64,000 nt of DNA from an uncultured Chloroflexia bacterium (lineage in GTDB: Bacteria; Chloroflexota; Limnocylindria; Limnocylindrales; CSP1-4), in assembly GCA_963841545.1 (NCBI GenBank), contig CAWJDE010000007.1, positions 27,764-91,763 on the forward strand, given 5' to 3'. Each line of letters begins with the position of its first letter. Within the stretch, counting starts at the first letter, position 1. The translations under genes were made by a program, and so were the position numbers. Shown here piece after piece: positions 8,564 through 61,852 of this stretch. The notes beneath the pieces were generated by a model. It worked only from the letters and a program-made list of their open reading frames with translations. It had not been told where the DNA came from and did not search any database.

Positions 8564-8596
8564 CCGCCGACGCCTGAGAGGGGCGTGAGAGGAGCA

Positions 8597-9420: not shown

Positions 9421-9422
9421 CC

Positions 9423-10176: not shown

Positions 10177-11610
10177 TCAGTAGCTGAAGCGCTCGGCGTG
10201 CACCCGGTCGCCCGGCACGCCCAGCTCGCGGAGCGCGTGCTCCACCGTCTGCATGAACCCGACCGGACCGCACACGTACACGTCGTGGTCCGCGATCGAC
10301 GGCACCAGGCGCGAGATCGCCCGGTGGTCGAAGGGGGGTGCCGGCGGCTGGTCCGACCCGTGGTTGTGGCGGTGGCCGACGACGTACTCCACCCGGGCGC
10401 TGCGGTGCGCCGCCAGCGCCTCGAGCTCGTGGAGGAAGGTCAGGTCCGACGGATGGCTGACCCGGTAGACGAGGTTGAGCTCGCCCGGGCGGGCAGGCAA
10501 CGATTCGAGCAGCGCCCGGAGCGGGGCGATCCCGATCCCACCGGCGATCAGCGTGATCCCGCGTCGCGTCCGCCGGGCACCGGTCATGACGCCGTACGGA
10601 CCCTCGAGCAGGACGGGGGTCCCGACCGCCGTGTCGGCGATCCGCGCGCTGTCGTCGCCCATGGCCTTGACGGTGAACCGCAGCCAGCGCCCGTTGGGCG
10701 CCGACGAGATCGAATACGGGTGGGCGCGCCACCAGCGATCGCGCGCCAGGAAGCGGACGACGAAGAACTGGCCGGACCGGACGGCCAGCCGATCGAGGTC
10801 GCGGCCACCGACGTAGACCGATACCACGCCGGGTGCCTCGGGGACGATCGCCGTGACCCGGGGGCGGTGGCGAATGGTGGTCAGCAGTGGCTGGCCGAAC
10901 CGGAACACGAGCACCAGGGCGATGGTCGCGAGATAGAGCGAGATCCAGTAGATGGCCGCGAGCTGGTCGTGGATGAAGTCGGCGCCCACGAACAGCTGGT
11001 GCAGGAACGCGAGCGCGATGGCCAGGTACGCGTAGAGGTGGAGGTAGAACCAGGTCTCGTACGACAACCGCCGGCGCGCGGCGCGCAGCGAGGTCAACCC
11101 GACCAGCACGAACAGGCCGAAGCCGGCCGTCGCCCACAGCACGTACGGGAACGTCGTCAGCAGCGAGATCGCCTCACCGATGACGCTCTGGCCATCCCCC
11201 TGTGCGTAGCCGATGGTCGTGAGCAGCCCGTGCGCCCCGATCAGCCAGATCGTGGCGAACCCGAGCCAGCGGTGCGCCCAGGCGAGCCGATCCGTCCCGA
11301 ATGCCTCGTCGAGCCAGGGGCTGCGGCCCATCAGGACGAGCTGGATGAGGGCGAGATAGGTCCCCAGCAGGGCCGTCAGCTGGCCGGCGGCGGTGAACGC
11401 CCCACCGGGCGTCGAGAGCTGGTCCGGGCCACCGTGGCGGACCCACATGAGGACGATGAACCCGCCGTTGGCGATCAGCAGCGTCGTGACGTCGCGCGGT
11501 CGGACGCCCCACAGCCGTGGCAGCGGCACGCGGACGGGCCGGGCGGCATGGGCAGAGGCCATGGCCGGATGGTCGGGCGAACGCATGAGAGCCCGATGAG
11601 ACGGGCGCAC
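10177..11610 (-). CDS. ferric reductase-like transmembrane oxidoreductase (FRE/NOX family: 6-TM heme domain + FAD + NAD(P)H binding)
   Basis: Multiple TM helices with conserved His residues, an FAD motif HPYSISS, and NAD-binding motifs GGIGIAP and CGP at the C-terminus. Confidence 0.75.
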   Translation of the reverse strand: MRPSHRALMRSPDHPAMASAHAARPVRVPLPRLWGVRPRDVTTLLIANGGFIVLMWVRHGGPDQLSTPGGAFTAAGQLTALLGTYLALIQLVLMGRSPWLDEAFGTDRLAWAHRWLGFATIWLIGAHGLLTTIGYAQGDGQSVIGEAISLLTTFPYVLWATAGFGLFVLVGLTSLRAARRRLSYETWFYLHLYAYLAIALAFLHQLFVGADFIHDQLAAIYWISLYLATIALVLVFRFGQPLLTTIRHRPRVTAIVPEAPGVVSVYVGGRDLDRLAVRSGQFFVVRFLARDRWWRAHPYSISSAPNGRWLRFTVKAMGDDSARIADTAVGTPVLLEGPYGVMTGARRTRRGITLIAGGIGIAPLRALLESLPARPGELNLVYRVSHPSDLTFLHELEALAAHRSARVEYVVGHRHNHGSDQPPAPPFDHRAISRLVPSIADHDVYVCGPVGFMQTVEHALRELGVPGDRVHAERFSY

Positions 11611-11639
11611 CGTTGGTCCCGGCGTGCGGCCCCGGTCGG

Positions 11640-11795
11640 ACGTCAGCCCGGTCGCGGTGTCAGCCCGATCCTCAGCCGGTCCGGATGTCGGCCCGGGCCG
11701 CCGTAAGCCCGGTCGGGGCGTCAGCCCGATCCTTAGCCGGTCTGGGTGTCAGCCCGGTCCGGGGCGTCAGCCCGGTCCGGGGCGTCAGCCCGCCC
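11640..11795. repeat. degenerate tandem repeat array (gtcagccc-containing units of about 18-26 nt, at least 6 copies)
   Basis: The gtcagcccgatcct(c/t)agccggtc and gtcagcccggtccggggc units recur. The array is intergenic between the ferric-reductase start and the GT39 stop. Confidence 0.7.
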
Positions 11796-14240: not shown

Positions 14241-15035
14241 TCAGGAGCCGGCAGTCGAGGCCGCCGGCGCGAGGGTCGGGGTCGCCGAGGCGCCGCCCGA
14301 GCCGGGCGACGCGCCGTCCGAGCCGGGCGTCGCCGACGCACCGCTCGAGCCCGGCGACGGCGACGCGCCGACCGCGTGGCACAGGACGCACGTCTCCTCG
14401 CCGCGCAGCGCGTGGTCGATCGGCAGGGCACCCACGTCGGCCGACTGGTGACAGCTGCGGCAGTTGAGCGTGCCCATGTCCGGGTGCGGGTTGACCGGCG
14501 GCGGCGACGGGTTCGGCTTGTGGCATAGCCAGCACTCGTCCTGGTTGCGTCCGACCATGCTCGTCGGCAGGTGGGCGACGCTCCCGTGGCAGTCCAGGCA
14601 CGGCTTGTTGAGCTCGGCGTGCGCCTGCGTGATCGCCGGTCCGTCCGGCGCCTCCTTGTGGCAGTTCAGGCACTCCGACTCCGCGATCCCGGCGTGTCCG
14701 GGCGCCGTGCGGCCGAGCTTCTCGTCCGTGTGGCAGGTGAGGCACGACGTCCAGCCCGCCAGCGGGTGACCGAGCGCCGGGATCGGCTTGAGCCCCGCCT
14801 CGCCGCCCTCGTAGTGGCACAGCAGGCAGCTGTTCGAGGTCGGGATGTGCGCGATCCCCATGAGCATCGTGTCGGGGGACGCCGATGCGGACGGCGTATC
14901 GCCGGTGGTGTCCGAGCTGGCGTGGAGCGGCAGCAGGTCGAGCCAGTTGGCCACCATCGTTCCGGCCAGCAGGGCCACCACGACCAGGTTGAGCACGATC
15001 AGCAGCCGCAGCGTGCGGTCGACTCGGGTCTTCAT
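14241..15035 (-). CDS. membrane-anchored heptaheme c-type cytochrome
   Basis: An N-terminal TM helix (LRLLIVLNLVVVALLAG) and seven CxxCH motifs (CLLCH, CLTCH, CLNCH, CLDCH, CWLCH, CRSCH, CVLCH) within about 200 aa, then a Ser/Gly/Ala/Pro-rich tail. Its ATG overlaps the stop of the protease gene (ATGA). Confidence 0.8.
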   Translation of the reverse strand: MKTRVDRTLRLLIVLNLVVVALLAGTMVANWLDLLPLHASSDTTGDTPSASASPDTMLMGIAHIPTSNSCLLCHYEGGEAGLKPIPALGHPLAGWTSCLTCHTDEKLGRTAPGHAGIAESECLNCHKEAPDGPAITQAHAELNKPCLDCHGSVAHLPTSMVGRNQDECWLCHKPNPSPPPVNPHPDMGTLNCRSCHQSADVGALPIDHALRGEETCVLCHAVGASPSPGSSGASATPGSDGASPGSGGASATPTLAPAASTAGS

Positions 15036-15565
15036 GCGACCGCCTCCGCGTGACTCGGGAAGGGACGGCTGACAGCGACCGCGACGGACGCGGCGCGCTC
15101 ATCGAGCGCGCGCAGCGCTCGGCAGGCGGCGTCGGTCGCGGCGGGGATCGCGGCCTCGACCTCCGGCGTGAGCGTCGTACCCGCGCCGAGATCGGCTGCC
15201 TGCACGCCGACCATCGCGAGCGCATCGGGCAGCCGGCCGGCGAGCCTCGCCAGCGCGACCAGGCTCTCGACCCCACCCCCCGCCCGGCGCGCGATCCGGT
15301 CACCGGGGATCATCGTGACCGTGCCCGGGGCCAGGCCGATGTCGACGGCATCGATCAGCAGCAGCGCGCGCGCGTCGACGAGGTGCTCGAGCACGGCCGG
15401 GCCGGTCGTCCCGCCGTCGACCAGCCGGACGTCGGCCGGGAGCGTGGCGGGATCGGTCGCCGCACGCGATCGAAGCTCGGCGATCAGGCGCGACCCAAGG
15501 CCGTCGTCCCGGTGCAGGACGCTGCCGACGCCGATCGCGACCACGGGACCGCGGCTGCGGCTCAT
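15032..15565 (-). CDS. hydrogenase maturation endopeptidase (HyaD/HupD family)
   Basis: The internal start MSRSRGPVVAIGVGSVLHRDDGLGSRL carries the GxGNxxxxDDGxG-type motif. It overlaps the cytochrome b stop by ATGA. Confidence 0.8.
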   Translation of the reverse strand: MSRSRGPVVAIGVGSVLHRDDGLGSRLIAELRSRAATDPATLPADVRLVDGGTTGPAVLEHLVDARALLLIDAVDIGLAPGTVTMIPGDRIARRAGGGVESLVALARLAGRLPDALAMVGVQAADLGAGTTLTPEVEAAIPAATDAACRALRALDERAASVAVAVSRPFPSHAEAVA

Positions 15566-16371
15566 TCGGCCCGCTCCAGCATCTCCGGGCCGCCGTCGCG
15601 CGACTCGACCAGCTCCTCGCGGGTCGGGAACTTGAAGCCGCTCACGATGCTCGAGATCAGCCCGTTCTTCTCCAGGTGGTCGACCAGGATGCAGCTGTAG
15701 ACGTGGAACAGCGCGATCGCCAGGATCGCCCACATGGCGAGGTGATGGATCAGGCGCAGCTGCTGCGCCCCGACGAGCTCGCGCAGCCAGCCGAACAGCG
15801 TGTGCCCGGGCTCGGCACCCATCAGGCCGTCCAGCGCGAACCCGGTGACCGTCTCGACCAGGAGCAGCGCGAACAGCGCGAGGTAGGCGGTGGCGGCGAG
15901 CTGGTTGTGCCCCAGCACCTTGGGGATCTCGCGGCGGACGAACCCGTAGAAGCCCGCCTGTCGGAACAGCTCCGTGGCCTGGAACCGGGTGGTCGGGATG
16001 AACGCCGACCAGCGCGCGAAGCGGTTGCCGGCCAGCAGCCAGTACGTTCGCACGATGCCCGAGAGCAGGAACACGAGCGCGGTCACGATGTGGATCAGCC
16101 GGACGGTCGACATCACGTTGCCGCCGGCGGGGATCAGGAACGGGTCGGCGATGTAGCCGCCGGTGAGGCTGAGCGTGACGATGCAAGCGGCGGTGACCCA
16201 GTGCGTGATCCGGACGGGCGCCTGCCACACGTAGAGCCGGACCCGCTCGTCGGGTCGCTCGATGGCGTGCGGCCCAGCAGCCTCGGGGGCGCCGTCGCCG
16301 GCCACCGCTTCCGGCACGCCGGGCCGGGTGGCGTCGACGAGCTCCGGGCGGACGTCAGCGGCTGCCGTCAT
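15562..16371 (-). CDS. Ni/Fe-hydrogenase b-type cytochrome subunit (HyaC/HupC-like)
   Basis: The start MTAAADV overlaps the large-subunit stop (ATGA). It has 4 TM helices with conserved His residues (ITHWV, HIVTAL, HHLAMW) and matches the CybH family. Confidence 0.85.
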   Translation of the reverse strand: MTAAADVRPELVDATRPGVPEAVAGDGAPEAAGPHAIERPDERVRLYVWQAPVRITHWVTAACIVTLSLTGGYIADPFLIPAGGNVMSTVRLIHIVTALVFLLSGIVRTYWLLAGNRFARWSAFIPTTRFQATELFRQAGFYGFVRREIPKVLGHNQLAATAYLALFALLLVETVTGFALDGLMGAEPGHTLFGWLRELVGAQQLRLIHHLAMWAILAIALFHVYSCILVDHLEKNGLISSIVSGFKFPTREELVESRDGGPEMLERAE

Positions 16372-18131
16372 GGGCGTGCCTCCAGGGCGTGGACGCGGAC
16401 GTCGACCCGGCCGGGCGCGGCCGTGCCGTAGGCGTGCGCCGCGCACGCGAGGCAGGGGTTCATGCTGTGGACCACGCGCAGCAGCTCGATCGGCTGCGCG
16501 GCATCGGTGACGGGCGTCTTCAGGAGCGCCGTCTCGAGCGGCCCGCGCACCCCCAGCGAGTCACGCGGCGACGCGTTCCACGTGCTCGCGTCGACCACCT
16601 GGTATCGGTCGATGACCCCGTCGCGGATGGCGATCCAGTGTCCGACGGCGCCGCGGGCGCCCTCGCCCAGGGACCACCCCTCGGCCTCTGCCGGCCACGT
16701 CGCAGGATCCCATGAGCCGATGTCGGCAACCGCGAGGTCGCCGGTGGACAGGTGCTGCCGGAGCTCCTGCAACCATCCGATCGCCCGGGTCGAGATGACC
16801 TGCGCCTCCGCCGCGCGCGCGATGGTCCGGCCGAGCGTGCTCGGCATGGCCTCGGGTCCCAGCGACAGCTGCCGGAGCAGCTCGGCCAGCGCGCGGCCGA
16901 TGTCCTGCTGGCCGTCGGCCCAGGCGACCATCACCCGCGCCAGGGGTCCGGTCTCCATCGGTTCGCCGTCATAGCGAGGCGCCTTGAGCCAGCTGTACCG
17001 CTCGGCGTTCTCGAGCGTGGTCAGCGGCAGCTCGAGGTCGAACGACGGGGTCGTCTGCCCGTCGGCCGGCCCCCGCGGTGCACCGCGCCGATCGTCGTCG
17101 TACCACGCGTGGGCCGAGGATTCCATGATGCCGTCAGGCTCGACCTGCTGCACCTGGAGGGCGCCGCTGGCGAGCCGGCCGCGGGATAGGAACCGTACCG
17201 GGTCGCCACCGTCGTCGAGCGGGTACTCTCCGGCGGCCAGGTACCCCGCGGCGCCGCCGCCGATGGCCGTCCATTCCGGGTACGACACGGTGAGCAGCCG
17301 CACGTCGGGAACGAACACCTCGCGCACGAACGTCTGGGCCTCGACCAGCAGGTCGTTGATCATGGTCAGACCGGCCTCGCCCAGCGGATCGGGCGAGTTG
17401 TGCTCGGGGACCTCGGGGTGGTCGCGATTGAGGCGGACGGCCGGTCCACCCCAGGGCGGCGCCAGGGCCATGCCGCCGACGAGATAGGTCTGCGGGTGGG
17501 GGTCCTTGCCGCCCAGGATGGCTTGGACGCGCATCAGTCGCGCCTGCCAGTCGAGCGCGTCGACGTAGTGCGCGTACAGGAGCAGGTTCTGCTCCGGTGA
17601 CAGGCGATAGGCGGCGTGCCCCCACCAGCCGGCCCCCATTCCGGTCCCGGGCGTGCCGAGGTTGGCCGCCAGCCGGGCCTGAATGTCGCCGAGGTACTGG
17701 CTGCTCGACTGCGGCCAGGCTCCGATCGCCCTGGCCAGCGACGACGTCGCAGCCGGGTCCGCGTCGAGCGCCGAGCGGGCATCGGCCCAGTCGGGCAGCT
17801 GGGCCTGGTAGAACGAGAGCACGTGGTCGCGCACGAGCTGGGTCGCCGCCAGCAGGTTGCGGACGAGCCGCGCGTTGGTGGGGACGGTGATCCCGATCGC
17901 TTGCTCGACGGCGCGGACCGAGGCCAGGGCGTGGACCCCGGAGCAGGTCCCGCAGATGCGCTCGGCGATCAGCCAGGCATCGCGCGGGTCGCGACCGCGC
18001 AGCACGGACTCGATCCCCCGGAACATCGTGCCCGAGCTCCACGCGTCCTCGACAACACCCCCGGCCACGTCTGCCTCGATGCGCAGCTGGCCGCCGACGC
18101 GCGACACCGGATCGACGACCAGGCGGCTCAC
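16368..18131 (-). CDS. [NiFe]-hydrogenase large subunit (group 1, membrane-bound uptake type)
   Basis: N-terminal Ni-binding motif RICGTCSGVH and C-terminal NPCLACAAH. It is 587 aa and sits between the small-subunit and cytochrome b genes. Confidence 0.95.
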   Translation of the reverse strand: MSRLVVDPVSRVGGQLRIEADVAGGVVEDAWSSGTMFRGIESVLRGRDPRDAWLIAERICGTCSGVHALASVRAVEQAIGITVPTNARLVRNLLAATQLVRDHVLSFYQAQLPDWADARSALDADPAATSSLARAIGAWPQSSSQYLGDIQARLAANLGTPGTGMGAGWWGHAAYRLSPEQNLLLYAHYVDALDWQARLMRVQAILGGKDPHPQTYLVGGMALAPPWGGPAVRLNRDHPEVPEHNSPDPLGEAGLTMINDLLVEAQTFVREVFVPDVRLLTVSYPEWTAIGGGAAGYLAAGEYPLDDGGDPVRFLSRGRLASGALQVQQVEPDGIMESSAHAWYDDDRRGAPRGPADGQTTPSFDLELPLTTLENAERYSWLKAPRYDGEPMETGPLARVMVAWADGQQDIGRALAELLRQLSLGPEAMPSTLGRTIARAAEAQVISTRAIGWLQELRQHLSTGDLAVADIGSWDPATWPAEAEGWSLGEGARGAVGHWIAIRDGVIDRYQVVDASTWNASPRDSLGVRGPLETALLKTPVTDAAQPIELLRVVHSMNPCLACAAHAYGTAAPGRVDVRVHALEARP

Positions 18132-19588
18132 GCTCGATCCTCCGCGGGTCCGCGATCCGCCTCGGGCGACGACTGGGGTCCGGTGGACGGCTCGGGCTCG
18201 ATCGGGGCCTCTCGCTCGCCCCGTGCCTCGGGCTCTGCCGAGAGGCCGGGCCCAACCGGCGGCTCGGGCTTGGCGGGAACCTCAGGCTCGGCCGATACCA
18301 CGCGCTCGGCGAGCGCCTCGGGCTCGACGTTCGGGATGGTCGCGCTTGCCGGCTCGGCGTTCGGGTTGGTCGCGCCTGCCGGTTCGACGTTCGGGATGGT
18401 CGCGCCTGCCGGTTCGGCGGGCAGGTCAGTCGTCACGGCCGCCGCGGTGGGCGCCGCGACCGGCTCCAACGGTGCCTTCGCCTTCGCTCGGCTCGTGCGC
18501 CCGGCACGCCGTCGACCCTGCACGGCGCGATACTTCTCGCGAGCCGTCATCCCGGCACCATGGAGGACCGCCGCCGCGCCCACCCCGCCGACGAGGAGCG
18601 TTCCCGCGGTGTCGGCGGTCAGCGAGGGCATGAACGGAACGGGCGATCCTAGGCGCCGGTACGCCGGCAGCATCGAGTCCCAGAAGCGCGGCGTCACGCA
18701 GCCCACGCAGCCCGCACCGGCCCGGACGTTCCAGCTCAGCGCGTCGCCGTAGCGGGCGGTCGGGCAGTTCGCCATCGTCTCGGGCCCCTTGCAGCCGAGC
18801 TTGTACAGGCACCAGCCCTTCTGGGCACCCGCGTCCCCCCACGCCGTCGCGAACTCGCCGAACTCGAAGTGCGGCCGGCGCTCGCACTGGTTGTGGATCA
18901 GGTTGCCGTAGGCGAACAGCGGCCGCCCGCCGAGGTCCGCCGGCGGCAGGTTGCCGGCCGCCAGGTAGTGGACGATGGTCGCCGACAGGTTGACGACGTT
19001 CATCGGACAGCCGGGCAGCGTCACCAGCCGGGCATCGCCGATCGCCTGCCGAACGCCGGTGGCCGAGGTCGGCCCGCCCGTCGCACCCGGCACACCGCCA
19101 TCGAAGGCACACGACCCGAGCGCGATCGTCGCCAGCGCGCCGTCGCACACCTCGCGGGCCACATCGGCCAGGGGTCGCCCGCCGACCAGGCAATAGGCGC
19201 CGCCGGCGGCGGTCGGAATCGCGCCCTCGACGATCGCGATGTACCCGTTCGGATAGCGCTCCATGGCGGTCGTGCGCGCGACATCCACCGGTGCACCCGC
19301 AACCGCCAGCAGCGACTGGTGATAGTCGACCGACAGGACGTCGAGGAGCAGCGTCGAGACCGATGGGTCCGCGCTGCGCAGCATCGCCTCGGTGTTCCCC
19401 CCGCAGGTCTGCCCGCGGAGCCAGATCACCGGGATGCGGGGCGCCGTCTCGACGGCCCTGGCAATCCGCGGCGCATACGCGGCCGGCAGCGCGAGCGCGG
19501 CAGCCATCGCCGCGGAGAACCGGAGGAACGATCGACGGGTCATGCCACGCTGGACCAGCGCGGCGTACAGCCCGTCGTCTCCCATCAC
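18128..19588 (-). CDS. [NiFe]-hydrogenase small subunit with a Tat signal and a repetitive C-terminal extension
   Basis: A twin-arginine motif (TRRSFLRF), FeS-cluster Cys ligands (GQTCGGN, GSCA, CPTARYG, CVGCVTP), and about 110 extra C-terminal residues containing 3 x AEPAGATIPNVEP. It overlaps the large-subunit start by 4 nt. Confidence 0.9.
   Translation of the reverse strand: MMGDDGLYAALVQRGMTRRSFLRFSAAMAAALALPAAYAPRIARAVETAPRIPVIWLRGQTCGGNTEAMLRSADPSVSTLLLDVLSVDYHQSLLAVAGAPVDVARTTAMERYPNGYIAIVEGAIPTAAGGAYCLVGGRPLADVAREVCDGALATIALGSCAFDGGVPGATGGPTSATGVRQAIGDARLVTLPGCPMNVVNLSATIVHYLAAGNLPPADLGGRPLFAYGNLIHNQCERRPHFEFGEFATAWGDAGAQKGWCLYKLGCKGPETMANCPTARYGDALSWNVRAGAGCVGCVTPRFWDSMLPAYRRLGSPVPFMPSLTADTAGTLLVGGVGAAAVLHGAGMTAREKYRAVQGRRRAGRTSRAKAKAPLEPVAAPTAAAVTTDLPAEPAGATIPNVEPAGATNPNAEPASATIPNVEPEALAERVVSAEPEVPAKPEPPVGPGLSAEPEARGEREAPIEPEPSTGPQSSPEADRGPAEDRA
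18320..18420. repeat. in-frame tandem repeat of about 39 nt, 3 copies, inside the small-subunit 3' end
   Basis: The unit ggctcgacgttcgggatggtcgcgc(c/t)tgccggttcg recurs three times and encodes the PNVEPAGAT repeats. Confidence 0.7.
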
Positions 19589-19967: not shown

Positions 19968-22613
19968 CTACCTCAGGATGGCGAAGGCGTCGAGATCCAC
20001 CCGCGGATGCGTGCCCGTGCCGACGACGACCAGGCGCACGGTCCGCCTGACCGCCGTCGACCAGGTGCGCTGCCAGACCACGCTCCTCGTGAGCGCCGAC
20101 GACGCGTGCAGGTTGATCGTCGCGACGCGCCTCCCGTTCACGTAGATCTTCACCTTGCCCCGTCTCGGGGCGCGGGTCGTCACCAGCGCGATGGAGCGCG
20201 CGGTCAAGGTCAGCGTCGCGGACGCGCCGCCAGCCCTCGCATGCCTGACCGACCCGCTCGAGTACCCGCTCGCGGAGCTTGTGCGCCAGGTGCCGACGTA
20301 GTGGATCGCGGGACGCGTCTGCTGACGCAGGTCCGGCCGCACCACGGGACCGAGCGTCCAGGCGGAGGTGTTGCCCGCCAGATCGACGGCGCGGACCTCG
20401 AAGCGGACGCTCCCCGAGGAGCCGACGTTGAGCGCGAGCGACGGCGTCGCGACCCCGAACGCGATCAGGGTCCAGGTGTCCCCGCCGTCGACCGATCGGG
20501 CGACCTCGTACCTCGCGATCCCGGCACCCCCGGTGTCGGCGCCCGACCAGGCAAGCCGGATCGGCAGCGAGGTCCCCGACAGCCGGGCTCCGGTCCGCAG
20601 GGTCGCCTTCGGGGCCGACGCCGTGGGGGCGGTCCGATCGATCGCGACAGCGCTCGTCGTCGCCGTCGAAGCCGGGCCCACGTTGCCCGATCCGTCCTGG
20701 ACCGAGAGCGGGGCGAGCGACAGGGCCACGGTCCCCTGCGAGCAGCCGGTGACGTTGATCGCGTAGCTGGTCGACGCGCCGGTGGGTGCGCCGATCACGC
20801 ATCCAGTGGCGGAACCCGACGTGCCGAGGTCCGAGGCGGTCAGGCCGGTGACGGATTCGCTGAAATGGATCGAGAACCGGACGGTGGCACCGCCGTAGGG
20901 CGTGGCGGTGGTCGGCGCGAAGGTTTCGACCGTGGGTGGAGTGAGGTCGGGTGGCGCGCTGCCGCTCGGCGATGGGGATGGGGATGGGGACGGGGACGGG
21001 GTGGGGGTCGGCGACGCGGTCGGCGTGGGGGTTGGCGTGGACGTCGGGGAGGCGGTCGGCGTGGGGGTCGGGGCTGCCGAGGCAGTCGGGGTCGGTGACA
21101 GCGTCGGTGAGGCAGTGGGCGTCGGCGTCGGTGAGGCAGTGGGCGTCGGCGTCGGCTCGGGCATCGAGGCGGCGGCGTTGACGGCAGCGCCCGCGTCGAC
21201 GATCCCGGCGCCGCAGCCCAGCGACTGGCAGCCGCTGCCGGAGCCGTCGCTGGCGAAGGCGCGCACGTTGTCGACGAGCAACGACCGGACGGTGGCAGGC
21301 GACAGGCCGGGGGCGATCGCGAACAGGAGCGCCGCGACCCCGGCCACGTGGGGCGCGGCCATGCTGGTCCCCGATCCCCAGCCATAGGTCTCGGTCGACG
21401 GGCTCGTCGTCCCGTTGTTCCAGGTCGAGAGGATCGAGACGCCCGGGGCCGCGATCGTCACGCCGGCGCCGTAGTTGCTGAACGACGCGCGCTTGCCGGC
21501 ATTGTCGGTCGCCGCGACCGAGACCACGCCGTCGCAGCCGGCCGGCGAGTAGCCCGCCTCGTCAGCATTGCTGTTGCCGGCAGCCACCACGACCACGGCG
21601 CCGCGGCTGGTCGCATCGTCGATCGCCGACTGCATCGTGCTCCCGCAGCTGCCCGGGCCGCCCAGCGACAGGTTGAGCACGCGTGCGGGGTGCGCGTTGG
21701 CGGGCACCCCGGGCACGGTGCCACCGGCCGCCCACCGGACGGCCGCGGCGATGTCGGAGTCGTAGCCGCCGCACTTGCCGAGGACGCGGACCGGCAGGAT
21801 CGAGGTCGACCACGCGATCCCGGCCACGCCGGCGCCGTTGTTGCCGGCGGCGCCGATCGTGCCGGCCACGTGCGTCCCGTGCCATGAGGAGCTCTCGGCC
21901 GGACAGCCCTGGAAGTAGCCACTGGCCGATTCCGCCGTGGTCACCCAGTCGCCGGGGTCCGCGGGGTTCGCGTCGCGCCCGTCGCCGTCGTTGGCGATCG
22001 CCGGATCGCTGATGAAGTCGTAGCCGGGCAGCACCCGCGCGGCAAGCTCGGAGTGGGTCGTGATCCCGGTGTCGATGACGGCGACGGTCACCGACGCGCT
22101 GCCGGTGGTGGTGTCCCAGGCAGCAGGCGCGTCGATCCCGTAGCTGCCGAACAGGTCCTGCTGGTAGCCAGCGTAGTAGGTGTCGTTCGGGGTGAGATCG
22201 GCGGACATCCGCAGGTCGGGGGCGACCTCGGCCACCCCGCCGACACCCGCGATGGCGTGCAGGTCAGCCAGCGCCAGCGCGCGAGTCCGCGCGACCGGCA
22301 GCCAGTACGCCGTCGCATCGTCGCCCAGCTCGGCTGCCTTCCGGAGACCCGGGAGGGCAGCCGCCAGACGTCCCGTTCGCTCGCTCCGCGCCACCCCGCC
22401 GCTGCCCTGGCGCCACTGGACCACGACCCGCTCGAGCGGGACGTTCCCCAGGTTCCGCGCATCGACCCGGCCCGGCCCCACGGCAGCCACATCGCCAACC
22501 GGCATGGGTGCGCCGGCGACCGCGAGGGCAAGCACCAGCAGGGCGGCACCGAGGACGCGTGAGCTCAGGGACAAGGGCGTGGGACTCCGCTGCGCGGCGA
22601 CGGCCGCCGTCAT
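19968..22613 (-). CDS. secreted S8-family (subtilisin-like) serine peptidase with a Pro/Thr-rich linker and C-terminal beta-rich domains
   Basis: A signal peptide, the catalytic motifs [12 protein letters not shown] and [11 protein letters not shown], a PTPTAS linker, and a C-terminal domain of about 350 aa. Confidence 0.85.
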
Positions 22614-23076: not shown

Positions 23077-23743
23077 CTCGCCGCGATCGGCGGCGGAGCC
23101 TCCGTGAGCTCGGGCAGTCCGATCCTGGAAGGGCGCCCCCATCACTGCCGCCAATGTCCACCCGGTACGGATCGGCGACAAGGTACCGGTCGGGCACCTC
23201 GTTCGTGGGGTTGCGTGCGCGCACCACCCGGCGTCGTCCACGCTCGGCGGGCGGCCGCCATGCCATCCGGCCCGTCCTGCTACCCCTCGAACAGGGGTCC
23301 CCGATCGCCTGCCGGGCGTGTGGACTTCGGAGCCGTGGCACGGGAGGCTGGCAGCGCCCAGGGTGGAGGCCGGAAGTCATCTCGGGGGTGCAAACCCAAT
23401 GTCCGTCGCCCCGATGGCCGTCATCGAGCAGCCACTCGTTCCGTTCCAGATCCGGGTCCGGATCCGGATGCGACCCGTCCGCGCCGCGCTGGCAGTCGCG
23501 CTGCTCGTCATGGGCGCCCTGCTGACCGCCCAGCCCCTCACGTACGTCGTCGCGTTCGCACGCTGACCGGTGGTTGCGCGCCCTGGCGCGCTGGGCCGCT
23601 CGTCGACGTCCGGACGTTGCGCTCGGTGGCCGGCACTCGAACGGGAGTGCCCTGCGTTCTGGCGCGAGTGACCGGCGTTCGAGCGGGAGTGACCGGCATC
23701 CGCGCCCGAGCGACGATCGTGTACGCGGGGCGATGGTGAGCCG

Positions 23744-23819
23744 GCAGGGATTCGAACCCTGAACCTAGTGATTAAGAGTCACTTGCTCTACCGTTGAGCT
23801 ACCGGCCCGGACCCGCGGA
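23744..23819 (-). tRNA. tRNA-Lys (anticodon CUU)
   Basis: The reverse complement folds as a cloverleaf: GGGCCGG acceptor stem, D-arm GCUCAACGGUAGAGC, anticodon arm AGUGA-CUCUUAA-UCACU (CUU), T-arm CAGGGUUCGAAUCCCUG, then 3' CCGGCUCACCA with the CCA encoded. Confidence 0.85.
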
Positions 23820-23910: not shown

Positions 23911-25443
23911 TTACTGGTTGTCGATCTGGGCGCGCTGGAGGCGGCCGCTGTAGTCGACGTAGATCGCCTTCCACTCGGTGAACGTGTCGAGCGCCGCGTG
24001 ACCCGCCTCGCGGTGGCCGTTGCCGGTGTCCTTCCAGCCGCCGAACGGGAGATGCGTCTCGGCACCCGTGGTCCCGGCGTTGACGTAGACGATGCCGGCC
24101 TCGAAGTCGCGCATGGCGCGGAACGCGGTGTTCACGTCCCGGGTGTACACGGACGCTGACAGGCCGTAGCGGACCTGGTTGGCCGCGGTCATGGCCTCCT
24201 CGTAGCCGTCGGCGGGCACGACCGACAGCACCGGGCCGAAGATCTCGTCCTGGGCGATGGTCGCCATGGGCGCGACGCGGTGGAAGATCGTGGGCGCGAA
24301 GAAGTGGCCGTGATCGAGATCGGCGCCGCTCACCGGGTGGCTGCCGGTCGCGCGAGCGCCGCCCGTCACCAGCTCGCCCTCCCGCCGGCCGATCGCGACG
24401 TAGCGCTCCACCTTGTCGACGGCGGCGGCGTTGACGAGCGGTCCGACGTCGATCGTCTCGTCCAGGCCGCTGCCCAGGCGCAGTCCCCGGACCCGCGTCT
24501 CGAGGCGTCCCACCAGCTCGTCGGCGATCGGACGATCCGCGATCACCCGTGAGCAGGCGGTGCACCGCTGGCCGGTGGTCCCGAACGCCGACCACAGGAT
24601 CCCGTCGACCGCGAGGTCGAGATCCGCGTCGCGCAGCACCACGACCGCGTTCTTGCCGCCCAGCTCGAGACTGGCCCGTGCCAGCCGCCGACCCGTGCGC
24701 TGCGCGATCCGCCGGCCCGTGGCCGACGACCCGGTGAACGAGATCACGCCGACGTCGGGGTTGTCGACGATCGCGTCGCCGACCTCCGCACCGGAGCCCG
24801 TCACGAGGTTGACGACACCCGGCGGGAAGCCGGCCTCGTCCAGCAGCTCCACCAGCAGCGTCGCGCAATGCGGTGCGTCCGAGGCCGGCTTGAACACCAC
24901 CGCGTTGCCGGCGACGAGCGCGGGCATCAGCTTCCAGCACGGGATCGCGATCGGGAAGTTCCAGGGCGTGATGATCCCGGCGATCCCGATCGGCTGGCGG
25001 ATGCTCATGGCCCACTTGTCGGGCAGCTCCGAGGGGACCGTGTCGCCGAACATCCGGCGGCCCTCGCCGGCCATCAGGAACGCGATGTCGATCCCTTCCT
25101 GGACGTCGCCCCGGGCCTCGGCCAGGACCTTGCCCATCTCGCGCGTCATCGCCCGGGCGAGCCGCTCCTTGTGCTCCGCCATCAGGGCGCCGAAGCGATA
25201 CAGGAGCTCGCCACGCTTGGGGGCGGGCGTCGCCTGCCACGCGGGGAGCGCATGCTCCGCGGCGCGGATCGCCATCGCCACGTCGGGGGCCGAGCCGGCC
25301 TGGAAGCGGCCGACGACATCCCGCATGTCGGCGGGATTGACGCTCTCGAAGGTGGCCCCGGACACGCCGTCCACCCACCGGCCGGCGATGAACAGCTGAT
25401 ACGTGGTGGGCGGGCTGGTGGGCGCGCTGGTGGCGTCGGACAT
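23911..25443 (-). CDS. NAD(P)-dependent aldehyde dehydrogenase family protein
   Basis: ALDH motifs are present: ELGGKNAVVV, catalytic Cys in GQRCTA, and FTGS. Confidence 0.9.
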   Translation of the reverse strand: MSDATSAPTSPPTTYQLFIAGRWVDGVSGATFESVNPADMRDVVGRFQAGSAPDVAMAIRAAEHALPAWQATPAPKRGELLYRFGALMAEHKERLARAMTREMGKVLAEARGDVQEGIDIAFLMAGEGRRMFGDTVPSELPDKWAMSIRQPIGIAGIITPWNFPIAIPCWKLMPALVAGNAVVFKPASDAPHCATLLVELLDEAGFPPGVVNLVTGSGAEVGDAIVDNPDVGVISFTGSSATGRRIAQRTGRRLARASLELGGKNAVVVLRDADLDLAVDGILWSAFGTTGQRCTACSRVIADRPIADELVGRLETRVRGLRLGSGLDETIDVGPLVNAAAVDKVERYVAIGRREGELVTGGARATGSHPVSGADLDHGHFFAPTIFHRVAPMATIAQDEIFGPVLSVVPADGYEEAMTAANQVRYGLSASVYTRDVNTAFRAMRDFEAGIVYVNAGTTGAETHLPFGGWKDTGNGHREAGHAALDTFTEWKAIYVDYSGRLQRAQIDNQ

Positions 25444-25488
25444 GGGGTCCTCTTCTGGCTCGACGTGCAGGTAGGTCAGCGGGTCGCG

Positions 25489-26724
25489 TCAGACGCGCTC
25501 GAAGGCCATCGCGACGGACCCGCCACCGCCCAGGCACAGGGTCGCCAGCCCGTACCTGCCGCCCCGCCGCTCGAGCTCGTGGAGCAGCGTCGCCACGATC
25601 CGCGCCCCCGACGCGCCGATCGGGTGACCCAGCGCGATCGCCCCGCCGTTCACGTTGACCTTCGACCAGTCGAAACCGAGCTCGCGCCCATCGGCCAGGA
25701 CCTGCGCGGCGAACGCCTCGTTGATCTCGATGAGGTCGTAGGCATCGGGTTCGAGGCCGGTCCTCGCCGCCAGCCCGCGGACACCCTCGATCGGCGCCAG
25801 GAACAGCCACCTGGGTGCCACCTCCGCCTGCGCATAGCCGACGATCCGGGCCAGCGGCCGCAACCCGTACTGCTCCACCGCGCGCTCCGACGCCACGATG
25901 GTGGCCGCGGCCCCATCGGTGATGCCCGGCGCGTTGCCGGCCGTGACGGTCCCAACGGTCGCCGTGCCCCGGTCCTCGCCCGACGGCAGCTCGAACGCCG
26001 GCCGCAGGCGGGCGAGCGCCTCGGGCGTGGTGTCGCGTCGCGGGCTCTCGTCGACCGAGATCACCGTCTCGCGACCCTTGGCGTCGCGGATCGTGACGGG
26101 CGCCATCTCGGCGTCGAACCGGCCGGCGTCGATCGCCTCGACCGCCCGGCGATGGCTCTCCAGGGCGAACGCGTCCTGGTCCTCGCGGGTCACCCCGCTG
26201 TGGATGGCGACCCGCTCGGCATGGGTGCCCATGTGACAGTCCTCGACCGAGCACCAGAGCCCGTCGAGGACCGTCGAATCCTCGAGGACCCCGTTGCCCA
26301 GTCGATAGCCGAAGCGCGCCCTGCGGAGCAGGAACGGCGCCTGGTTCATGGACTCCATCCCCCCCGCCACGAACAGGTCGCCGTCGCCGGCCCGGATCGC
26401 GGCGGCGGCCAGCATGATCGCCTTGAGGCCGGATCCGCAGACACGGTTGATCGTGGTGGCCGGCGTCGTGTCGGCGAGACCGGCGAGCAGCAGGGCCTGG
26501 CGCGCGGGCGCCTGACCGGCCCCTGCCTGGAGCACCTGGCCCATGAACACCTCGTCGAAGCGGGCCTCGGGCGGCAGCCCGGCGCGCTCCACCGCTGCCC
26601 GGATCGCCACCCCGCCGAGCTCCACCGCAGGCACGTCCGCAAGCGCGCCGCCGAACCGCCCGATGGGGGTCCTCGCGGCGCTGACGAGGAACGCCTGGGG
26701 CGCCCGCGGAAGGACTTCCTGCAT
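25489..26724 (-). CDS. acetyl-CoA C-acetyltransferase (thiolase II)
   Basis: I chose the start MQEVLPRAPQAFLVSAARTPIGRF. Thiolase signatures are NRVCGSGLKAI, GHPIGASGAR and ATLCLGGG. Confidence 0.9.
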   Translation of the reverse strand: MQEVLPRAPQAFLVSAARTPIGRFGGALADVPAVELGGVAIRAAVERAGLPPEARFDEVFMGQVLQAGAGQAPARQALLLAGLADTTPATTINRVCGSGLKAIMLAAAAIRAGDGDLFVAGGMESMNQAPFLLRRARFGYRLGNGVLEDSTVLDGLWCSVEDCHMGTHAERVAIHSGVTREDQDAFALESHRRAVEAIDAGRFDAEMAPVTIRDAKGRETVISVDESPRRDTTPEALARLRPAFELPSGEDRGTATVGTVTAGNAPGITDGAAATIVASERAVEQYGLRPLARIVGYAQAEVAPRWLFLAPIEGVRGLAARTGLEPDAYDLIEINEAFAAQVLADGRELGFDWSKVNVNGGAIALGHPIGASGARIVATLLHELERRGGRYGLATLCLGGGGSVAMAFERV

Positions 26725-26822
26725 GGTCGCGAGGGTACACCCGGCTCCTTTCGGCACCCGTCCGGCGCCGGCTACGATCGTGCTCCTGCCGGGGCTCTGG
26801 AGCGAAAGGGAATGCACGTCGC

Positions 26823-27260
26823 GTGACTGCGCTTGACGCGGGTCCGAGCTTCGGGCCGCCCCCCGGACCCAACGGCCCGGGCAGCACGCCGAAGGTCGCG
26901 ACGGTGCTCGTCTGCGACGACGACGCCTCCGTCCGCGCCCTGCTGGTGCGGGTCCTCCATCGTGCGGGCTACCTGGCCGTCCCGGTCGCCACCGCCGGTG
27001 AGGCGATCGAGGTCCTGGAGACGACGTCCGTCGACGCCGTCATGGCGGACCATCGGATGCACGCCATGACCGGCATCGAGCTGCACGGCCGGATCGCGCA
27101 GCGGCATCCCGGCCTCGGGTCCCGCTTCCTGTTGATGACCGGCGATCCCGAGGAGGATTCGGTCATCGCGTTCGCCCGGCAGTGGCGGCTCCAGGTGCTG
27201 GCGAAGCCGTTCGACCTGCGTCAGATCGCGGTGATCCTGGGCGATCTGCTGGCGTCCTGA
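26823..27260 (+). CDS. stand-alone response regulator receiver-domain protein (CheY-like)
   Basis: A D-D-D acidic pocket (VLVCDDDASV...AVMADHRM) and a conserved Lys (AKPF). It is divergent from the thiolase gene. Confidence 0.7.
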   Translation: MTALDAGPSFGPPPGPNGPGSTPKVATVLVCDDDASVRALLVRVLHRAGYLAVPVATAGEAIEVLETTSVDAVMADHRMHAMTGIELHGRIAQRHPGLGSRFLLMTGDPEEDSVIAFARQWRLQVLAKPFDLRQIAVILGDLLAS

Positions 27261-27273
27261 CCGCCGTCCTGCC

Positions 27274-28143
27274 TCAGCCGCTCCGCGGCGGATAGGCGTG
27301 GAACCCGCGGCCCGTCTTCTGCCCGAGGTGTCCCTGGGCGACCAGGTCGAGCAGGACCTGCGGCGGCGCGAACTGCGGCTGCCCGAACCCGTCCTCGAGC
27401 ACGCGCATGATCCCGAGGCACACGTCCAACCCGATGAAGTCCGCGAGCTCGAGCGGACCCATCGGGTGGTTGAGCCCCACCTTCGCCCCGGTGTCGATGT
27501 CCTCGGCCGTGCCGAGCCCCTCCTGGTAGGCGCGCATCGCCTCGGCCAGGAACGGCATCAGGATCCGGTTGACGATGAACCCGGGCCGGTCGGCCGACAC
27601 GATCACCTGCTTGCCCAGCTCGCCCGCGAGGTCACGGACCGCAGCCTCGGTGGCATCCGACGTCGCGGTCCCGCGGATCAGCTCGACCAGCGGCATGACC
27701 GGCACGGGGCTGAAGAAGTGCATCCCCACGAAACGCTCGCGCCGATCCTCGGCGACGGCGGCCGCGAGTCGATCGATCGAGATCGACGACGTGTTGGAGG
27801 CGAACACGGCGGGCCTCGGGGCGATCGGTTCGAGGTCGGCCCACAGGCGCGTCTTGACCTCGGCGTCCTCGAACACGGCCTCGATCACGAGGTCGGCGTT
27901 GGCGACCAGCTCCAGGTCATCGGTCACCTCCAGCCGTGCCAGCGTCGCGTCGCGGTCCTCCGGGGAGAGCCTGCCTCTGGCGACTGCGCGCTCGAGGTTG
28001 CCGGCGATCCGGTCGCGACCCGCCTGGGCGCGGGCCAGGCCGGGCTCGTACAGCGTCACGTGCTTGCCGATGGCTGCGTGGACCTGCGCGATGCCGTGGC
28101 CCATCAGCCCGGCGCCGGCCACGAACACCCGCTCGATCGTCAT
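27274..28143 (-). CDS. 3-hydroxybutyryl-CoA dehydrogenase (3-hydroxyacyl-CoA dehydrogenase family)
   Basis: A Rossmann motif (VAGAGLMGHGIA) and the 3HCDH signature NTSSISI...FFSPVPVMPLVE. Confidence 0.9.
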   Translation of the reverse strand: MTIERVFVAGAGLMGHGIAQVHAAIGKHVTLYEPGLARAQAGRDRIAGNLERAVARGRLSPEDRDATLARLEVTDDLELVANADLVIEAVFEDAEVKTRLWADLEPIAPRPAVFASNTSSISIDRLAAAVAEDRRERFVGMHFFSPVPVMPLVELIRGTATSDATEAAVRDLAGELGKQVIVSADRPGFIVNRILMPFLAEAMRAYQEGLGTAEDIDTGAKVGLNHPMGPLELADFIGLDVCLGIMRVLEDGFGQPQFAPPQVLLDLVAQGHLGQKTGRGFHAYPPRSG

Positions 28144-28236
28144 CGACGCAGCCTACGCCGTCGCGCCCGGCCCCGTCGGGATCGGCGCCGCGGGGATCGG
28201 GCCCGCGCCTCCCCGCTCGGGCGGCGGTCCGGCCGG

Positions 28237-29190
28237 TCAGCGGCCGCGCGAGCCACGCCCGGCGTCCTGGTCGAGCCGGGCCAGCAGCCGGTCCGCCGCC
28301 GCGTACGGGTCCAGCTCGTGGCGCGCCACGCCCTCGTAGACCTCACGCACCGAGGCGTCGCCCACGCGCTCCGCCAGCCGCTGGCGAACCCGCTCGGCGA
28401 CGACCTCCGCGATCTGGGCCGCGGCTCGCGAGACCCTGGCTGCGTGGACGGTCCGCCCATCGGCCCGGCGCTCGTCGAGCGCGGCGAGCAGCTCGCGGAT
28501 CCCCTCCCCGGTGACGGCGGTGGTGACGAGCACAGCGGGTCGCTTCGGGGCCGGGCGCGCCGGGTCCGTGCCGCTCCGCACGGCCGGGGTGAGCATCGCG
28601 CGCAGCTGGGACGCCGTGCGCTGCGCCCCGGGACGGTCGCCCTTGTTGACGACCACGATGTCGGCGACCTCGAGCAGGCCGGCCTTGATCGCCTGGACCT
28701 CGTCGCCCATCTCGGGTGCCTCGAGCACGACCGTCGTGTCCGCGGCAGCCGCCACCTCGACCTCGCTCTGGCCGGTACCCACCGTCTCGAGCAGGATGAC
28801 GTCGAACCCGGCCGCATCGAGCACGGCAGCGGCCGCGGTCGAGGTCGCGGCCAGGCCGCCCGCGTGGCCGCGCGACGCCATCGAGCGGATGAACACGCCG
28901 CCGTCGCCGGCGTAGGCCTGCATCCGGACGCGGTCGCCGAGCAGCGCGCCCCCGGTGATCGGGGACGACGGGTCCACGGCCACGACGGCCACGGACCGGC
29001 CGGCCGCTCGCAGCTCGGCGATGAGCGCGGCCGCGAGCGTGGACTTGCCCGCCCCGGGCGGTCCGGTGATGCCGACGAGATGCCCATGCCCGGCGGTCGG
29101 ATAGAGGCGGCGCAGCGCGTGCTCGGCGACGGGGGTGTGGTTCTCGACCGCCGTCAGCAGCCGCGCCAGCGACCGGCGGTCACCCGCCAT
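28237..29190 (-). CDS. meaB: MeaB/ArgK-family G-protein chaperone of B12-dependent acyl-CoA mutases
   Basis: A P-loop GITGPPGAGKST, with switch and dimerisation regions. I chose the start at MAGDRRSLARLL; an upstream GTG is possible. Confidence 0.8.
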   Translation of the reverse strand: MAGDRRSLARLLTAVENHTPVAEHALRRLYPTAGHGHLVGITGPPGAGKSTLAAALIAELRAAGRSVAVVAVDPSSPITGGALLGDRVRMQAYAGDGGVFIRSMASRGHAGGLAATSTAAAAVLDAAGFDVILLETVGTGQSEVEVAAAADTTVVLEAPEMGDEVQAIKAGLLEVADIVVVNKGDRPGAQRTASQLRAMLTPAVRSGTDPARPAPKRPAVLVTTAVTGEGIRELLAALDERRADGRTVHAARVSRAAAQIAEVVAERVRQRLAERVGDASVREVYEGVARHELDPYAAADRLLARLDQDAGRGSRGR

Positions 29191-29326
29191 CGCGGCGTCG
29201 GCGAGCGTCGCGGCGCGGACCGCCGCCGGGTCCCCGGCATCGGCATGCGCGCCTGGCGCCCGGACGCCGACGTCGTGCGAGCCACCGTCAGGGGCGCCGT
29301 CGGCCCGGGTGCCGGCCGCCACGCCC

Positions 29327-29731
29327 CTACTCGCGCGGTGTCGCGTTGGCGCGGATGAACTCGGCCACCTCGCCGATCGTCGTCCCGGGCCCGAACACCG
29401 CTGCCACCCCGGCCGCCTTGAGCGGCTCGACGTCATCGTCGGGGATGATCCCCCCGACGGTGACCAGGACGTCGTCGAGGCCCTGCTCGCGGAGCTGCGC
29501 GCAGACCCGTGGCACCAGCGTCATGTGCGCGCCCGACAGGATCGACAGGCCGACGACGTCGACATCCTCCTGGAGCGCCGCGGTGACGATCATCTCCGGC
29601 GTCTGGCGGAGCCCCGTGTAGACGACCTCGAACCCCTCGTCGCGCAGGCCGCGCGCCAGCACCTTGGCCCCGCGGTCGTGGCCGTCGAGGCCGGGCTTGG
29701 CGATCAGCACCTTGAGCGGTCGGTCGGTCAT
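29327..29731 (-). CDS. icmB: cobalamin-binding small subunit of an acyl-CoA mutase (IcmB/HcmB-like B12-binding domain)
   Basis: I chose the start [24 protein letters not shown]. The DxHxxG B12-binding motif and a Rossmann-like fold fit in about 135 aa. Confidence 0.8.
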
Positions 29732-36436: not shown

Positions 36437-38224
36437 TCAGACGGCGACGGGCTCGCGGTACTCCCCGAAGACCTCGCGCAGGACCTGGCACTGCTCGCCC
36501 AGGGTCGCGTAGGCGGCAGCGCAGCGCAGGAAGTGGGGCATCAGGTTGACCTCGCTCGACCCCGGGCGCGACGCCGCCGCGCGCAGCCCGGCCAACGCGG
36601 CACTGACGGCCTCCGCGTCGCGCTCGGCCCGGACGCGCTCCAGCCGGGCAAGGTGCCGCTCCAGGGATCCTTCGGGCACCTCGAGCACGGGCACCCGGAT
36701 CGGCTCGCCCTGGACGTACCGGTTGACCCCGACGATGCCGCGCTCCTGGGCCTCGAACTCGCGCTGGAACCGGTACGCGGCGTCGGCGATCTCGCGCTGC
36801 GGGTAGCCGTCGGCGATGGCCGCCACCATCCCACCCCGTCGATCGATCTCGTCGAGATACCGCCAGACCTCGCGCTCGACCCAATTCGTCAGCGACTCCA
36901 CGAACCATGAGCCGCCCAGCGGATCGACGGTCGAGGCAACACCCGTCTCCTCGAACAGCACCTGCTGCTGGCGCAGCGCGAGCAGCGCGGCCTCGGCCGT
37001 CGGCACCGCCAGCGCCTCGTCGTAGGCATCGGTGTGCAGGCTCTGCGTCCCGCCGAGGATCGCGGCCAGGGCCTGCGATGCGACCCGGGTGAGGTTGTTG
37101 AGCGGCTGCTGCGGGGTGAGGGACACGCCGGCGGTCTGCGAGTGGAACCGCATCCAGCCCGAGCGCTCGTTCTCGGCCCGGTAGCGCTCGCTCATGAGCT
37201 TCCACCAGATCCGTCGCGAGGCGCGGAACTTGGCGATCTCCTCGAAGAAGTCGGAATGGCTGTTGAAGAAGAACGACAGCCGCGGCGCGAACTCGTCGAC
37301 CCGCAGGCCGCGCGCCATGGTCGCCTCGACGTACGCCATCCCGTCGGCGATGGTGAACGCAAGCTCCTGGACCGCAGTCGAGCCCGCCTCCCGGATGTGG
37401 TAGCCGCTGATCGAGACGGTGTTCCACCTCGGCAGCTCGCGCGTCCCGAACTCGATCGTGTCGACGACCAGGCGCATCGACGGCTCGGGCGGGAACAGGA
37501 ACTCCTTCTGGGCGACGTACTCCTTGAGGATGTCGTTCTGGGTGGTGCCCTCGAGCGCGGCGCGGGGCACGCCCGCCTTCTCGGCCGCCGCGATGTACAT
37601 CGCCCAGATCGGCGCGGCCGGTGCGTTGATCGTCATCGAGGTGCTCACCCGGTCGAGCGGCAGGCCCGCCAGCAGCACCTCCATGTCGGCCAGGCTGCTG
37701 ACCGCGACCCCGCACGTTCCGAACTCGCCCTCGGCCTCGGGATCGTCGGTGTCGTAGCCGTACAGGGTGGGCATGTCGTAGGCGACCGAGAGCCCGGTCT
37801 GGCCCGCGTCGAGCAGCTGGCGGAAGCGGGCGTTCGTGTCCTCCGCGCTGCCGAAGCCCGCGAACATGCGCATCGTCCACGGCCGCGAGCGGTATCCCGT
37901 GGGATGGACCCCACGGGTGAACGGCGGCTCACCAGGCAGGCCGATGTCGCGCGGGCCGTCGAACGCCGCGTACCGCCCGACACCATCGCGCAGCGGCTCG
38001 CCGTGGTGGTCCACCGCGGTCGGCCCACCCGGACCGGACGGCCCGCCGCCGGGTCCCTCGACGGGCGCTTCGAGATCCCACGGGCCATACACACCGTCGA
38101 TGGGGAGGTCGCCCAGGGTGCTGAACCGGTCTCTCCGCTCCGGCAGGCGATCGAGCGACGGCGTCAGGCGCTCGACGCGCCAGGCCCGGCGGCGCTCGGA
38201 CCAGGCGTCGGGACGATCGCTCAT
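36437..38224 (-). CDS. icmA: B12-dependent acyl-CoA mutase large (catalytic TIM-barrel) subunit, isobutyryl-CoA-mutase-like
   Basis: It starts at MSDRPDAW inside the 893-aa track ORF and has the MCM N-terminal-domain signature ([40 protein letters not shown]). It lacks the fused B12 domain. It has Phe where MCM has Tyr89, and Gln (VAQKEF) where MCM has Arg207. Confidence 0.85.
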
Positions 38225-61838: not shown

Positions 61839-61852
61839 GGCGGCACCTTCTG

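Follow-up and report, generated by a model that had tools for sequence, protein, structure and literature searches.

The 64,000-nt stretch analysed here, referred to as the window, belongs to an uncultured bacterium of the Limnocylindria (Chloroflexota; contig CAWJDE010000007.1). It carries the genes for a split acyl-CoA mutase with a MeaB-type chaperone, next to genes of acyl-CoA metabolism. The window has a G+C content of ~73% throughout, and a mechanical list of its open reading frames (ORFs) is consequently crowded with spurious frames. Because of these many false ORFs, genes were called by a score of third-position GC and codon usage, followed by Pfam and NCBIfam profile searches. The searches confirmed all genes that an earlier note on this DNA had listed, at the same coordinates and on the minus strand, and the gene identities are established. 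The genes at the centre of this analysis are the following.

23911-25443, minus strand: NAD(P)-dependent aldehyde dehydrogenase (ALDH; Pfam Aldedh, E 1e-165)
25489-26757 (likely ATG at 26724), minus strand: thiolase (acetyl-CoA C-acyltransferase; Thiolase_N and Thiolase_C; TIGR01930, 443 bits, cut-off 240)
26823-27260, plus strand: receiver-only response regulator (PF00072, E 2e-15)
27274-28143, minus strand: 3-hydroxybutyryl/3-hydroxyacyl-CoA dehydrogenase (hbd-like; Pfam 3HCDH_N and 3HCDH)
28237-29322, minus strand: MeaB-type G-protein chaperone (PF03308, E 4e-84; TIGR00750, 316 bits, cut-off 241)
29327-29731, minus strand: small B12-binding subunit, 134 aa (icmB-like; PF02310; TIGR00640, 181 bits, cut-off 57)
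36437-38224, minus strand: large catalytic subunit of the isobutyryl-CoA mutase (ICM) type, 595 aa (icmA-like; PF01642, E 5e-208)

The sole matches of the large subunit are PF01642 and TIGR00641 (700 bits, cut-off 304). They cover residues 95-593 of 595, and a C-terminal B12 domain is missing. The small subunit carries the cobalamin-binding motif DxHxxG as DGHDRG, and an alignment including HcmB, PcmB and further small subunits shows no variation in this motif. MeaB exhibits the GTPase motifs GPPGAGKS (P-loop) and NKGD. Its reading frame is the one ending at 28237; the listed ORF 28140-29087 is a wrong frame. No further mutase, B12-domain or MeaB gene is found anywhere in the 64-kb window. The split acyl-CoA mutase proposed in the earlier note, with small subunit and MeaB at one site and the large subunit at 36437-38224, is thus borne out.

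The start of meaB is located 4 nt past the icmB stop, and owing to this spacing both genes are probably translationally coupled. The best NCBIfam models for the hbd-like protein are 3-hydroxybutyryl-CoA dehydrogenases, with scores slightly under their cut-offs; in about 17 loci of relatives, hbd comes next after meaB. The response regulator sits between thiolase and hbd; it converges with hbd, from which 13 nt separate it. Since this gene on the opposite strand intervenes, the acyl-CoA genes form two co-directional units, icmB-meaB-hbd and thiolase-ALDH. The single acyl-CoA block of the earlier note therefore holds with respect to its genes but not to its contiguity. The ALDH, co-directional with the thiolase, scores under every NCBIfam equivalog cut-off. 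An assignment as methylmalonate-semialdehyde dehydrogenase was rejected (329 bits, cut-off 448). For this reason, and because it belongs to a different transcription unit, the ALDH is only weakly linked to the mutase. Directly downstream of it a tRNA-Lys (CTT) is encoded at 23734-23808 on the minus strand, the sole Rfam/ARAGORN match in the window. The Rfam scan gave no cobalamin riboswitch in the window. Consensus promoters or terminators were not found between 23.5 and 30.5 kb, so that the operon boundaries follow from gene orientation and spacing.

The active site was compared at the columns of MutB Tyr89 (P. shermanii), HcmA Asp117 and MutB Arg207, written x/y/z in this order. In a HMMER alignment to solved structures, the Tyr89 column corresponds to Phe121 of the window protein (WTMRMFAGF), the Asp117 column (GISTDFDM in 4R3U) to Ala148 (GLSVAYDM) and the Arg207 column to Gln239 (EYVAQKEF). 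The Tyr89 column is anchored by two PDB entries, with Tyr in 1REQ and Phe in the Y89F mutant 5REQ. We fetched 80 related loci, of which 78 are readable in all three columns. F/A/Q is invariant in these Chloroflexota loci (78/78) and identical in the window, and the homologues of Deinococcus and Natrinema read F/A/Q as well. The same holds for real Streptomyces IcmA proteins (P0277, P0287 and P0367). The bait for Streptomyces IcmA was an approximate, IcmA-like sequence used solely to retrieve real proteins; it returned 566-aa Streptomyces proteins with 91-96% identity to it, several of which are named ‘isobutyryl-CoA mutase large subunit’ by some sources. Further reference large subunits for the signatures were taken from annotated plasmids.

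HcmA of Methylibium petroleiphilum and Xanthobacter Xaut_5021, 2-hydroxyisobutyryl-CoA mutase (HCM), gene context GntR-hcmB-hcl-meaH-hcmA: I/D/Q
Xaut_5043/5044, split subunits with a MeaB-like gene: L/L/N
Brevibacillus large subunit (L087), adjoining methylmalonyl-CoA epimerase and carboxyltransferase genes: Y/A/R
Streptomyces plasmid mutases, large and small subunit genes adjacent (without annotation in strain N50): Y/A/R

We take Xaut_5043/5044 to be the pivalyl-CoA mutase (PCM) PcmA/PcmB of Kitanishi et al. 2015. The Streptomyces plasmid mutases had been candidates for IcmA references and were rejected, as Y/A/R is of the methylmalonyl-CoA mutase (MCM) type. In PMC7238569, Jost et al. 2015 is cited for two specificity-determining sites at which Tyr/Arg denotes MCM. 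With the HCM, PCM and MCM references reading I/D/Q, L/L/N and Y/A/R, the F/A/Q of the window protein points to the ICM type. Phe/Gln at the Tyr89 and Arg207 positions is known to mark both ICM and the fused enzyme IcmF. The signature itself is established, and the inspection of pocket residues that the earlier note had suggested for deciding the substrate would thus resolve to ICM.

The family as a whole is more diverse at these columns. Apart from Y/A/R, F/A/Q and I/D/Q, the 150 best family representatives (P0121-P0270) exhibit dozens of other combinations, of which VVR, VVV and I/V-x are found repeatedly and many others a single time. The RCM pattern, Ile/Val at HcmA positions 90/117, may be compared with representative P0134. 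This diversity points to many uncharacterised specificities in the acyl-CoA mutase family and to a substrate range that may be wider than the named enzymes imply.

Based on the signature, icmA, icmB and meaB quite likely encode an adenosylcobalamin (AdoCbl)-dependent ICM with its chaperone, linked to a butyryl-CoA/acetyl-CoA route. We infer the substrate, the subunit pairing, the pathway role and the direction of the route from sequence features. IcmA and IcmB would form the AdoCbl-dependent mutase interconverting isobutyryl-CoA and n-butyryl-CoA, and MeaB would act as the G-protein chaperone that gates cofactor loading, delivering the cofactor and protecting it. Hbd and thiolase would catalyse the final two reactions of a predicted route leading from butyryl-CoA via crotonyl-CoA, 3-hydroxybutyryl-CoA and acetoacetyl-CoA to two acetyl-CoA. 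The first oxidation could be provided by an acyl-CoA dehydrogenase together with a fused electron transfer flavoprotein (ETF) and an ETF-quinone oxidoreductase (ETF-QO), all of which are encoded in the window.

42962-44542, minus strand: ETF-QO-like oxidoreductase
44544-46433, minus strand: fused ETF beta-alpha, 629 aa, directly upstream of the ETF-QO gene
56120-57370: acyl-CoA dehydrogenase

The likely role of the system would be to channel isobutyryl-CoA derived from valine or isobutyrate to acetyl-CoA. The reverse direction could give branched starter units from acetyl-CoA.

The large subunit has its closest homologues, with 83-91% identity, in metagenome-assembled genomes (MAGs) that bear the labels Chloroflexi, Candidatus Limnocylindrales or Limnocylindria; for the nearest Limnocylindria MAGs, identity is 86-91%. 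The window thus stems from a high-GC member of the Chloroflexota and not from an actinomycete. An exact look-up of the window IcmA sequence gave no record. Among the 80 fetched loci, more than 40, which belong to Limnocylindria MAGs, share the whole gene order. It starts with hydrolase, DnaJ, a small ORF, icmA, DinB, an ORF, thioredoxin and a pyridoxal phosphate (PLP)-dependent dehydratase, and continues with hydrolase, folE, icmB, meaB, hbd, in part of the loci the response regulator, thiolase and ALDH. The response regulator is found in L002, L031, L048, L049 and L065. It is missing in L003, L046 and L054, where hbd runs directly into the thiolase gene. This conserved synteny is established. 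Since the order is kept in more than 40 relatives, the spacing of icmA and icmB, 6.7 kb in the window, is stable and has been passed on vertically. The large subunit is thus indeed encoded separately, at about the distance of 7 kb given in the earlier note, but the description of this gene as ‘unlinked’ does not stand.

Other lineages are arranged differently. In L072, a more distant member of the Chloroflexota, icmA, icmB and meaB are adjacent, and in L073 icmA is located ~0.7 kb upstream of icmB-meaB. A Deinococcus plasmid exhibits the adjacent order meaB-icmB-icmA. In Ktedonobacteria icmA stands alone, with no small subunit gene within 10 kb.

Two further observations concern icmA and its surroundings. 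A MerB-like gene (alkylmercury lyase, PF03243; 38378-39043, plus strand) separates icmA from the conserved ORF upstream and is oriented divergently from icmA. At the equivalent site it occurs only in L058 and L066, and most relatives have ~80 nt there. Moreover, the IcmA proteins of Limnocylindria (L001-L058 equivalents) contain a lineage-specific insertion near the N-terminus, 30-70 aa in length (residues ~52-90 of the window protein), which comprises a variable leader rich in Gly, Pro and Ala together with a conserved core. It is not present in Streptomyces IcmA, HcmA, MCMs and other Chloroflexota, and some Limnocylindria lack it too (L049, L050, L055 and L059-L062).

Phylogeny was evaluated by a neighbour-joining tree of the mutase barrel region (100 bootstraps). 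The Limnocylindria large subunits form a clade with 100% support, which is nested in a Chloroflexota F/Q clade (80%); Deinococcus joins at 64%. The split Y/A/R enzymes form their own clade (83%), and the window protein is placed outside of it. Together with the Phe/Gln pocket, this agrees with the view in the earlier note that the enzyme is not a canonical MCM. In terms of identity, the window protein is about equidistant from Streptomyces IcmA, split MCMs and HcmA.

Among the known systems, the likeness to Streptomyces ICM is in the architecture and the active site. PMC7238569 credits the characterisation of IcmA/IcmB of Streptomyces (S. cinnamonensis) to Zerbe-Burkhardt, Ratnatilleke, Vrijbloed and Robinson. 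Both systems consist of a large subunit of ~570-600 aa without B12 domain and a small subunit of ~135 aa with DxHxxG, and both read F/A/Q at the three diagnostic positions. The Streptomyces icmA and icmB genes are non-adjacent, as in the window. The window differs by the presence of meaB and hbd in the icmB unit, by the N-terminal insertion and by the motif WTMRMFAGF instead of WTIRQFAGF, and identity to Streptomyces IcmA amounts to 48% overall and 54% in the barrel.

IcmF (4XC6) resembles the window system in the predicted reaction and in the MeaB-like G-protein as partner of the mutase. In IcmF, small subunit, G-protein and large subunit are fused to ~1,100 aa, unlike the three separate genes of the window. 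IcmF is known to carry the Phe/Gln signature too. In a PDB search with the window large subunit, IcmF is distant (268 bits), and HcmA (4R3U) is the best match with 546 bits, followed by MCMs with ~460. HcmA heads this list because, to our knowledge, no structure of an unfused IcmA exists. HcmAB (Aquincola/Methylibium) has split subunits, a MeaB-family chaperone and a nearby hbd in common with the window. It differs by Ile90/Asp117 in place of Phe/Ala and by its AMP-binding ligase gene hcl and its GntR gene, and identity in the barrel is 50%. PcmAB (Xaut_5043/5044) likewise combines split large and small subunits with an adjacent MeaB-like gene, but exhibits the L/L/N signature, strongly divergent surrounding motifs and 40% identity. 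The split Y/A/R enzymes of Bacillota, Chloroflexota and Streptomyces plasmids share the two-gene architecture and show the highest barrel identity among the non-F/Q references compared (52-58%). They keep Tyr/Arg and adjoin epimerase and carboxyltransferase genes, in contrast to the Phe/Gln protein of the window outside their clade.

Several points weigh against an ICM. Its function in this clade is a prediction from sequence. Identity to Streptomyces IcmA is only 48%, and the deep nodes of the tree have <30% support. On both counts orthology to a characterised ICM is uncertain, and Phe/Gln could be the product of more than one origin. The residue preceding Phe121 is Met, in place of the Gln of Streptomyces IcmA, HcmA and MCMs. 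Unrelated genes (folE, hydrolase, PLP dehydratase, thioredoxin, DinB) occupy the 6.7-kb stretch separating icmA from icmB, so that co-expression of both subunits is uncertain. Neither an enoyl-CoA hydratase (crotonase) nor a branched-chain keto-acid dehydrogenase is encoded in the window. In addition, the adjacency of hbd and thiolase suits an HCM equally well, and F/Q enzymes such as IcmF accept further substrates.

A 2-hydroxyisobutyryl-CoA mutase (HCM/RCM), whose 3-hydroxybutyryl-CoA product would be consumed by Hbd and thiolase, accounts well for the position of these two genes directly downstream of icmB-meaB. M. petroleiphilum carries hbd close to hcmA, and HcmA is the best-scoring solved structure. 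However, the Ile90 and Asp117 that define HcmA are replaced by Phe and Ala, the Ile/Val pattern of RCM is absent as well, and with 50% identity HcmA is no closer than the MCMs. As to gene content, hcl, encoding the 2-hydroxyisobutyric acid (2-HIBA)-CoA ligase, and a GntR regulator gene accompany the published hcm/rcm genes (PMC7176365). Both were also seen in the hcm loci L081 and L082, but among the scanned window genes there is neither an AMP-binding 2-HIBA-CoA ligase nor a GntR gene. An HCM is hence very improbable, and of the options in the earlier note those of HCM and PCM fall away on signature and gene content. Its premise that a separate small subunit implies ICM, HCM or PCM does not hold either, since split Y/A/R large subunits exist (Brevibacillus, the paralogues in L072/L073).

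A further reading is a genuine split MCM, which is the annotation in all database sources: homologues are named ‘methylmalonyl-CoA mutase N-terminal domain/subunit’, and identity to split MCM-type large subunits reaches 52-58%. We regard it as next to excluded. In place of the carboxylate-binding residues Tyr89 and Arg207, the window protein and all readable orthologues (78 of the 80 loci) have Phe and Gln, the protein is placed outside the Y/A/R clade with its 83% support, and no epimerase or carboxyltransferase is located close by, unlike in the true MCM contexts of L087 and L073. Moreover, L072 and L073 contain both a Y/A/R and an F/A/Q paralogue, implying different functions. A third reading concerns other non-carboxylated substrates. 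IcmF also converts pivalyl- and isovaleryl-CoA (PMC10481361), and the window clade stands apart from Streptomyces IcmA, with Met for Gln ahead of Phe and its own N-terminal insertion, in a family with many uncharacterised signature combinations. C5 branched acyl-CoAs (pivalyl-, isovaleryl-CoA) or another non-carboxylated acyl-CoA as main substrates are nevertheless unlikely. The pocket of the PCM reference Xaut_5043 is quite different (L/L/N), the downstream Hbd and thiolase are C4 enzymes, and genes of the leucine pathway (methylcrotonyl-CoA carboxylase, 3-hydroxy-3-methylglutaryl-CoA lyase) are not found in the window.

A different question is whether IcmB and MeaB are dedicated to IcmA, or also or instead serve a second large subunit, of the MCM type, from another part of the genome. 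A co-directional cluster of L073 (3323-13744) encodes a carboxylase, a biotin carrier, a Y/A/R large subunit, methylmalonyl-CoA epimerase, the corrinoid adenosyltransferase CobO, an F/A/Q large subunit, a single small B12 subunit and a single MeaB. L072 exhibits a similar cluster at 4128-12499. This suggests that in both loci one B12-binding subunit and one MeaB serve two catalytic subunits, and the solitary icmA of Ktedonobacteria is in line with such sharing. On the other hand, co-occurrence of icmA with icmB-meaB is seen across more than 40 Limnocylindria genomes, and no second large subunit is encoded in the 64-kb window. A search with the Y/A/R paralogue of L073 gave top matches in Anaerolineae and Bacillota and did not show a Limnocylindria Y/A/R paralogue. 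For the window, a shared pair thus appears doubtful, albeit conceivable. Rather speculatively, a shared IcmB/MeaB module for ICM- and MCM-type subunits could exist in Chloroflexota, with the 7-10 kb spacing in Limnocylindria as its remnant and the F/Q clade as an independent, ICM-like offshoot of split MCMs.

Separate from this, the coding sequence annotated mce in L087 (7637-8479, Brevibacillus laterosporus plasmid) has an N-terminal region 57% identical to the small subunit of the window. It looks like a fusion of small subunit and epimerase hidden by its product name.

Elsewhere, the window harbours two [NiFe]-hydrogenase clusters and a protease gene.

14241-19588, minus strand: [NiFe]-hydrogenase small and large subunits, cytochrome b, maturation protease and multihaem cytochrome c
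19968-22613, minus strand: subtilisin-family protease, 881 aa, with a mycosin model (type VII secretion) as best match, under its cut-off
59526-63998, minus strand: NuoF-like and NuoG/Fer2-like proteins, [NiFe]-hydrogenase small and large subunits and HypA

The cluster at 59526-63998 looks like a bidirectional, NAD-linked hydrogenase.

ICMs of this kind, split, encoded by unlinked genes and served by a MeaB-type chaperone, are familiar from work of the late 1990s to 2010. The system described here hence adds no new chemistry or architecture, but a known kind of enzyme in an uncultured lineage. In our literature search no paper connecting ICM with Chloroflexota was found. As to annotation, the protein family is large and well conserved in Chloroflexota, and more than 100 close homologues now labelled ‘methylmalonyl-CoA mutase’ would become probable isobutyryl-CoA mutases. 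For the biology of the uncultured soil and freshwater Limnocylindria, the mutase predicts a link between branched-chain (valine/isobutyrate) and straight-chain C4 metabolism.

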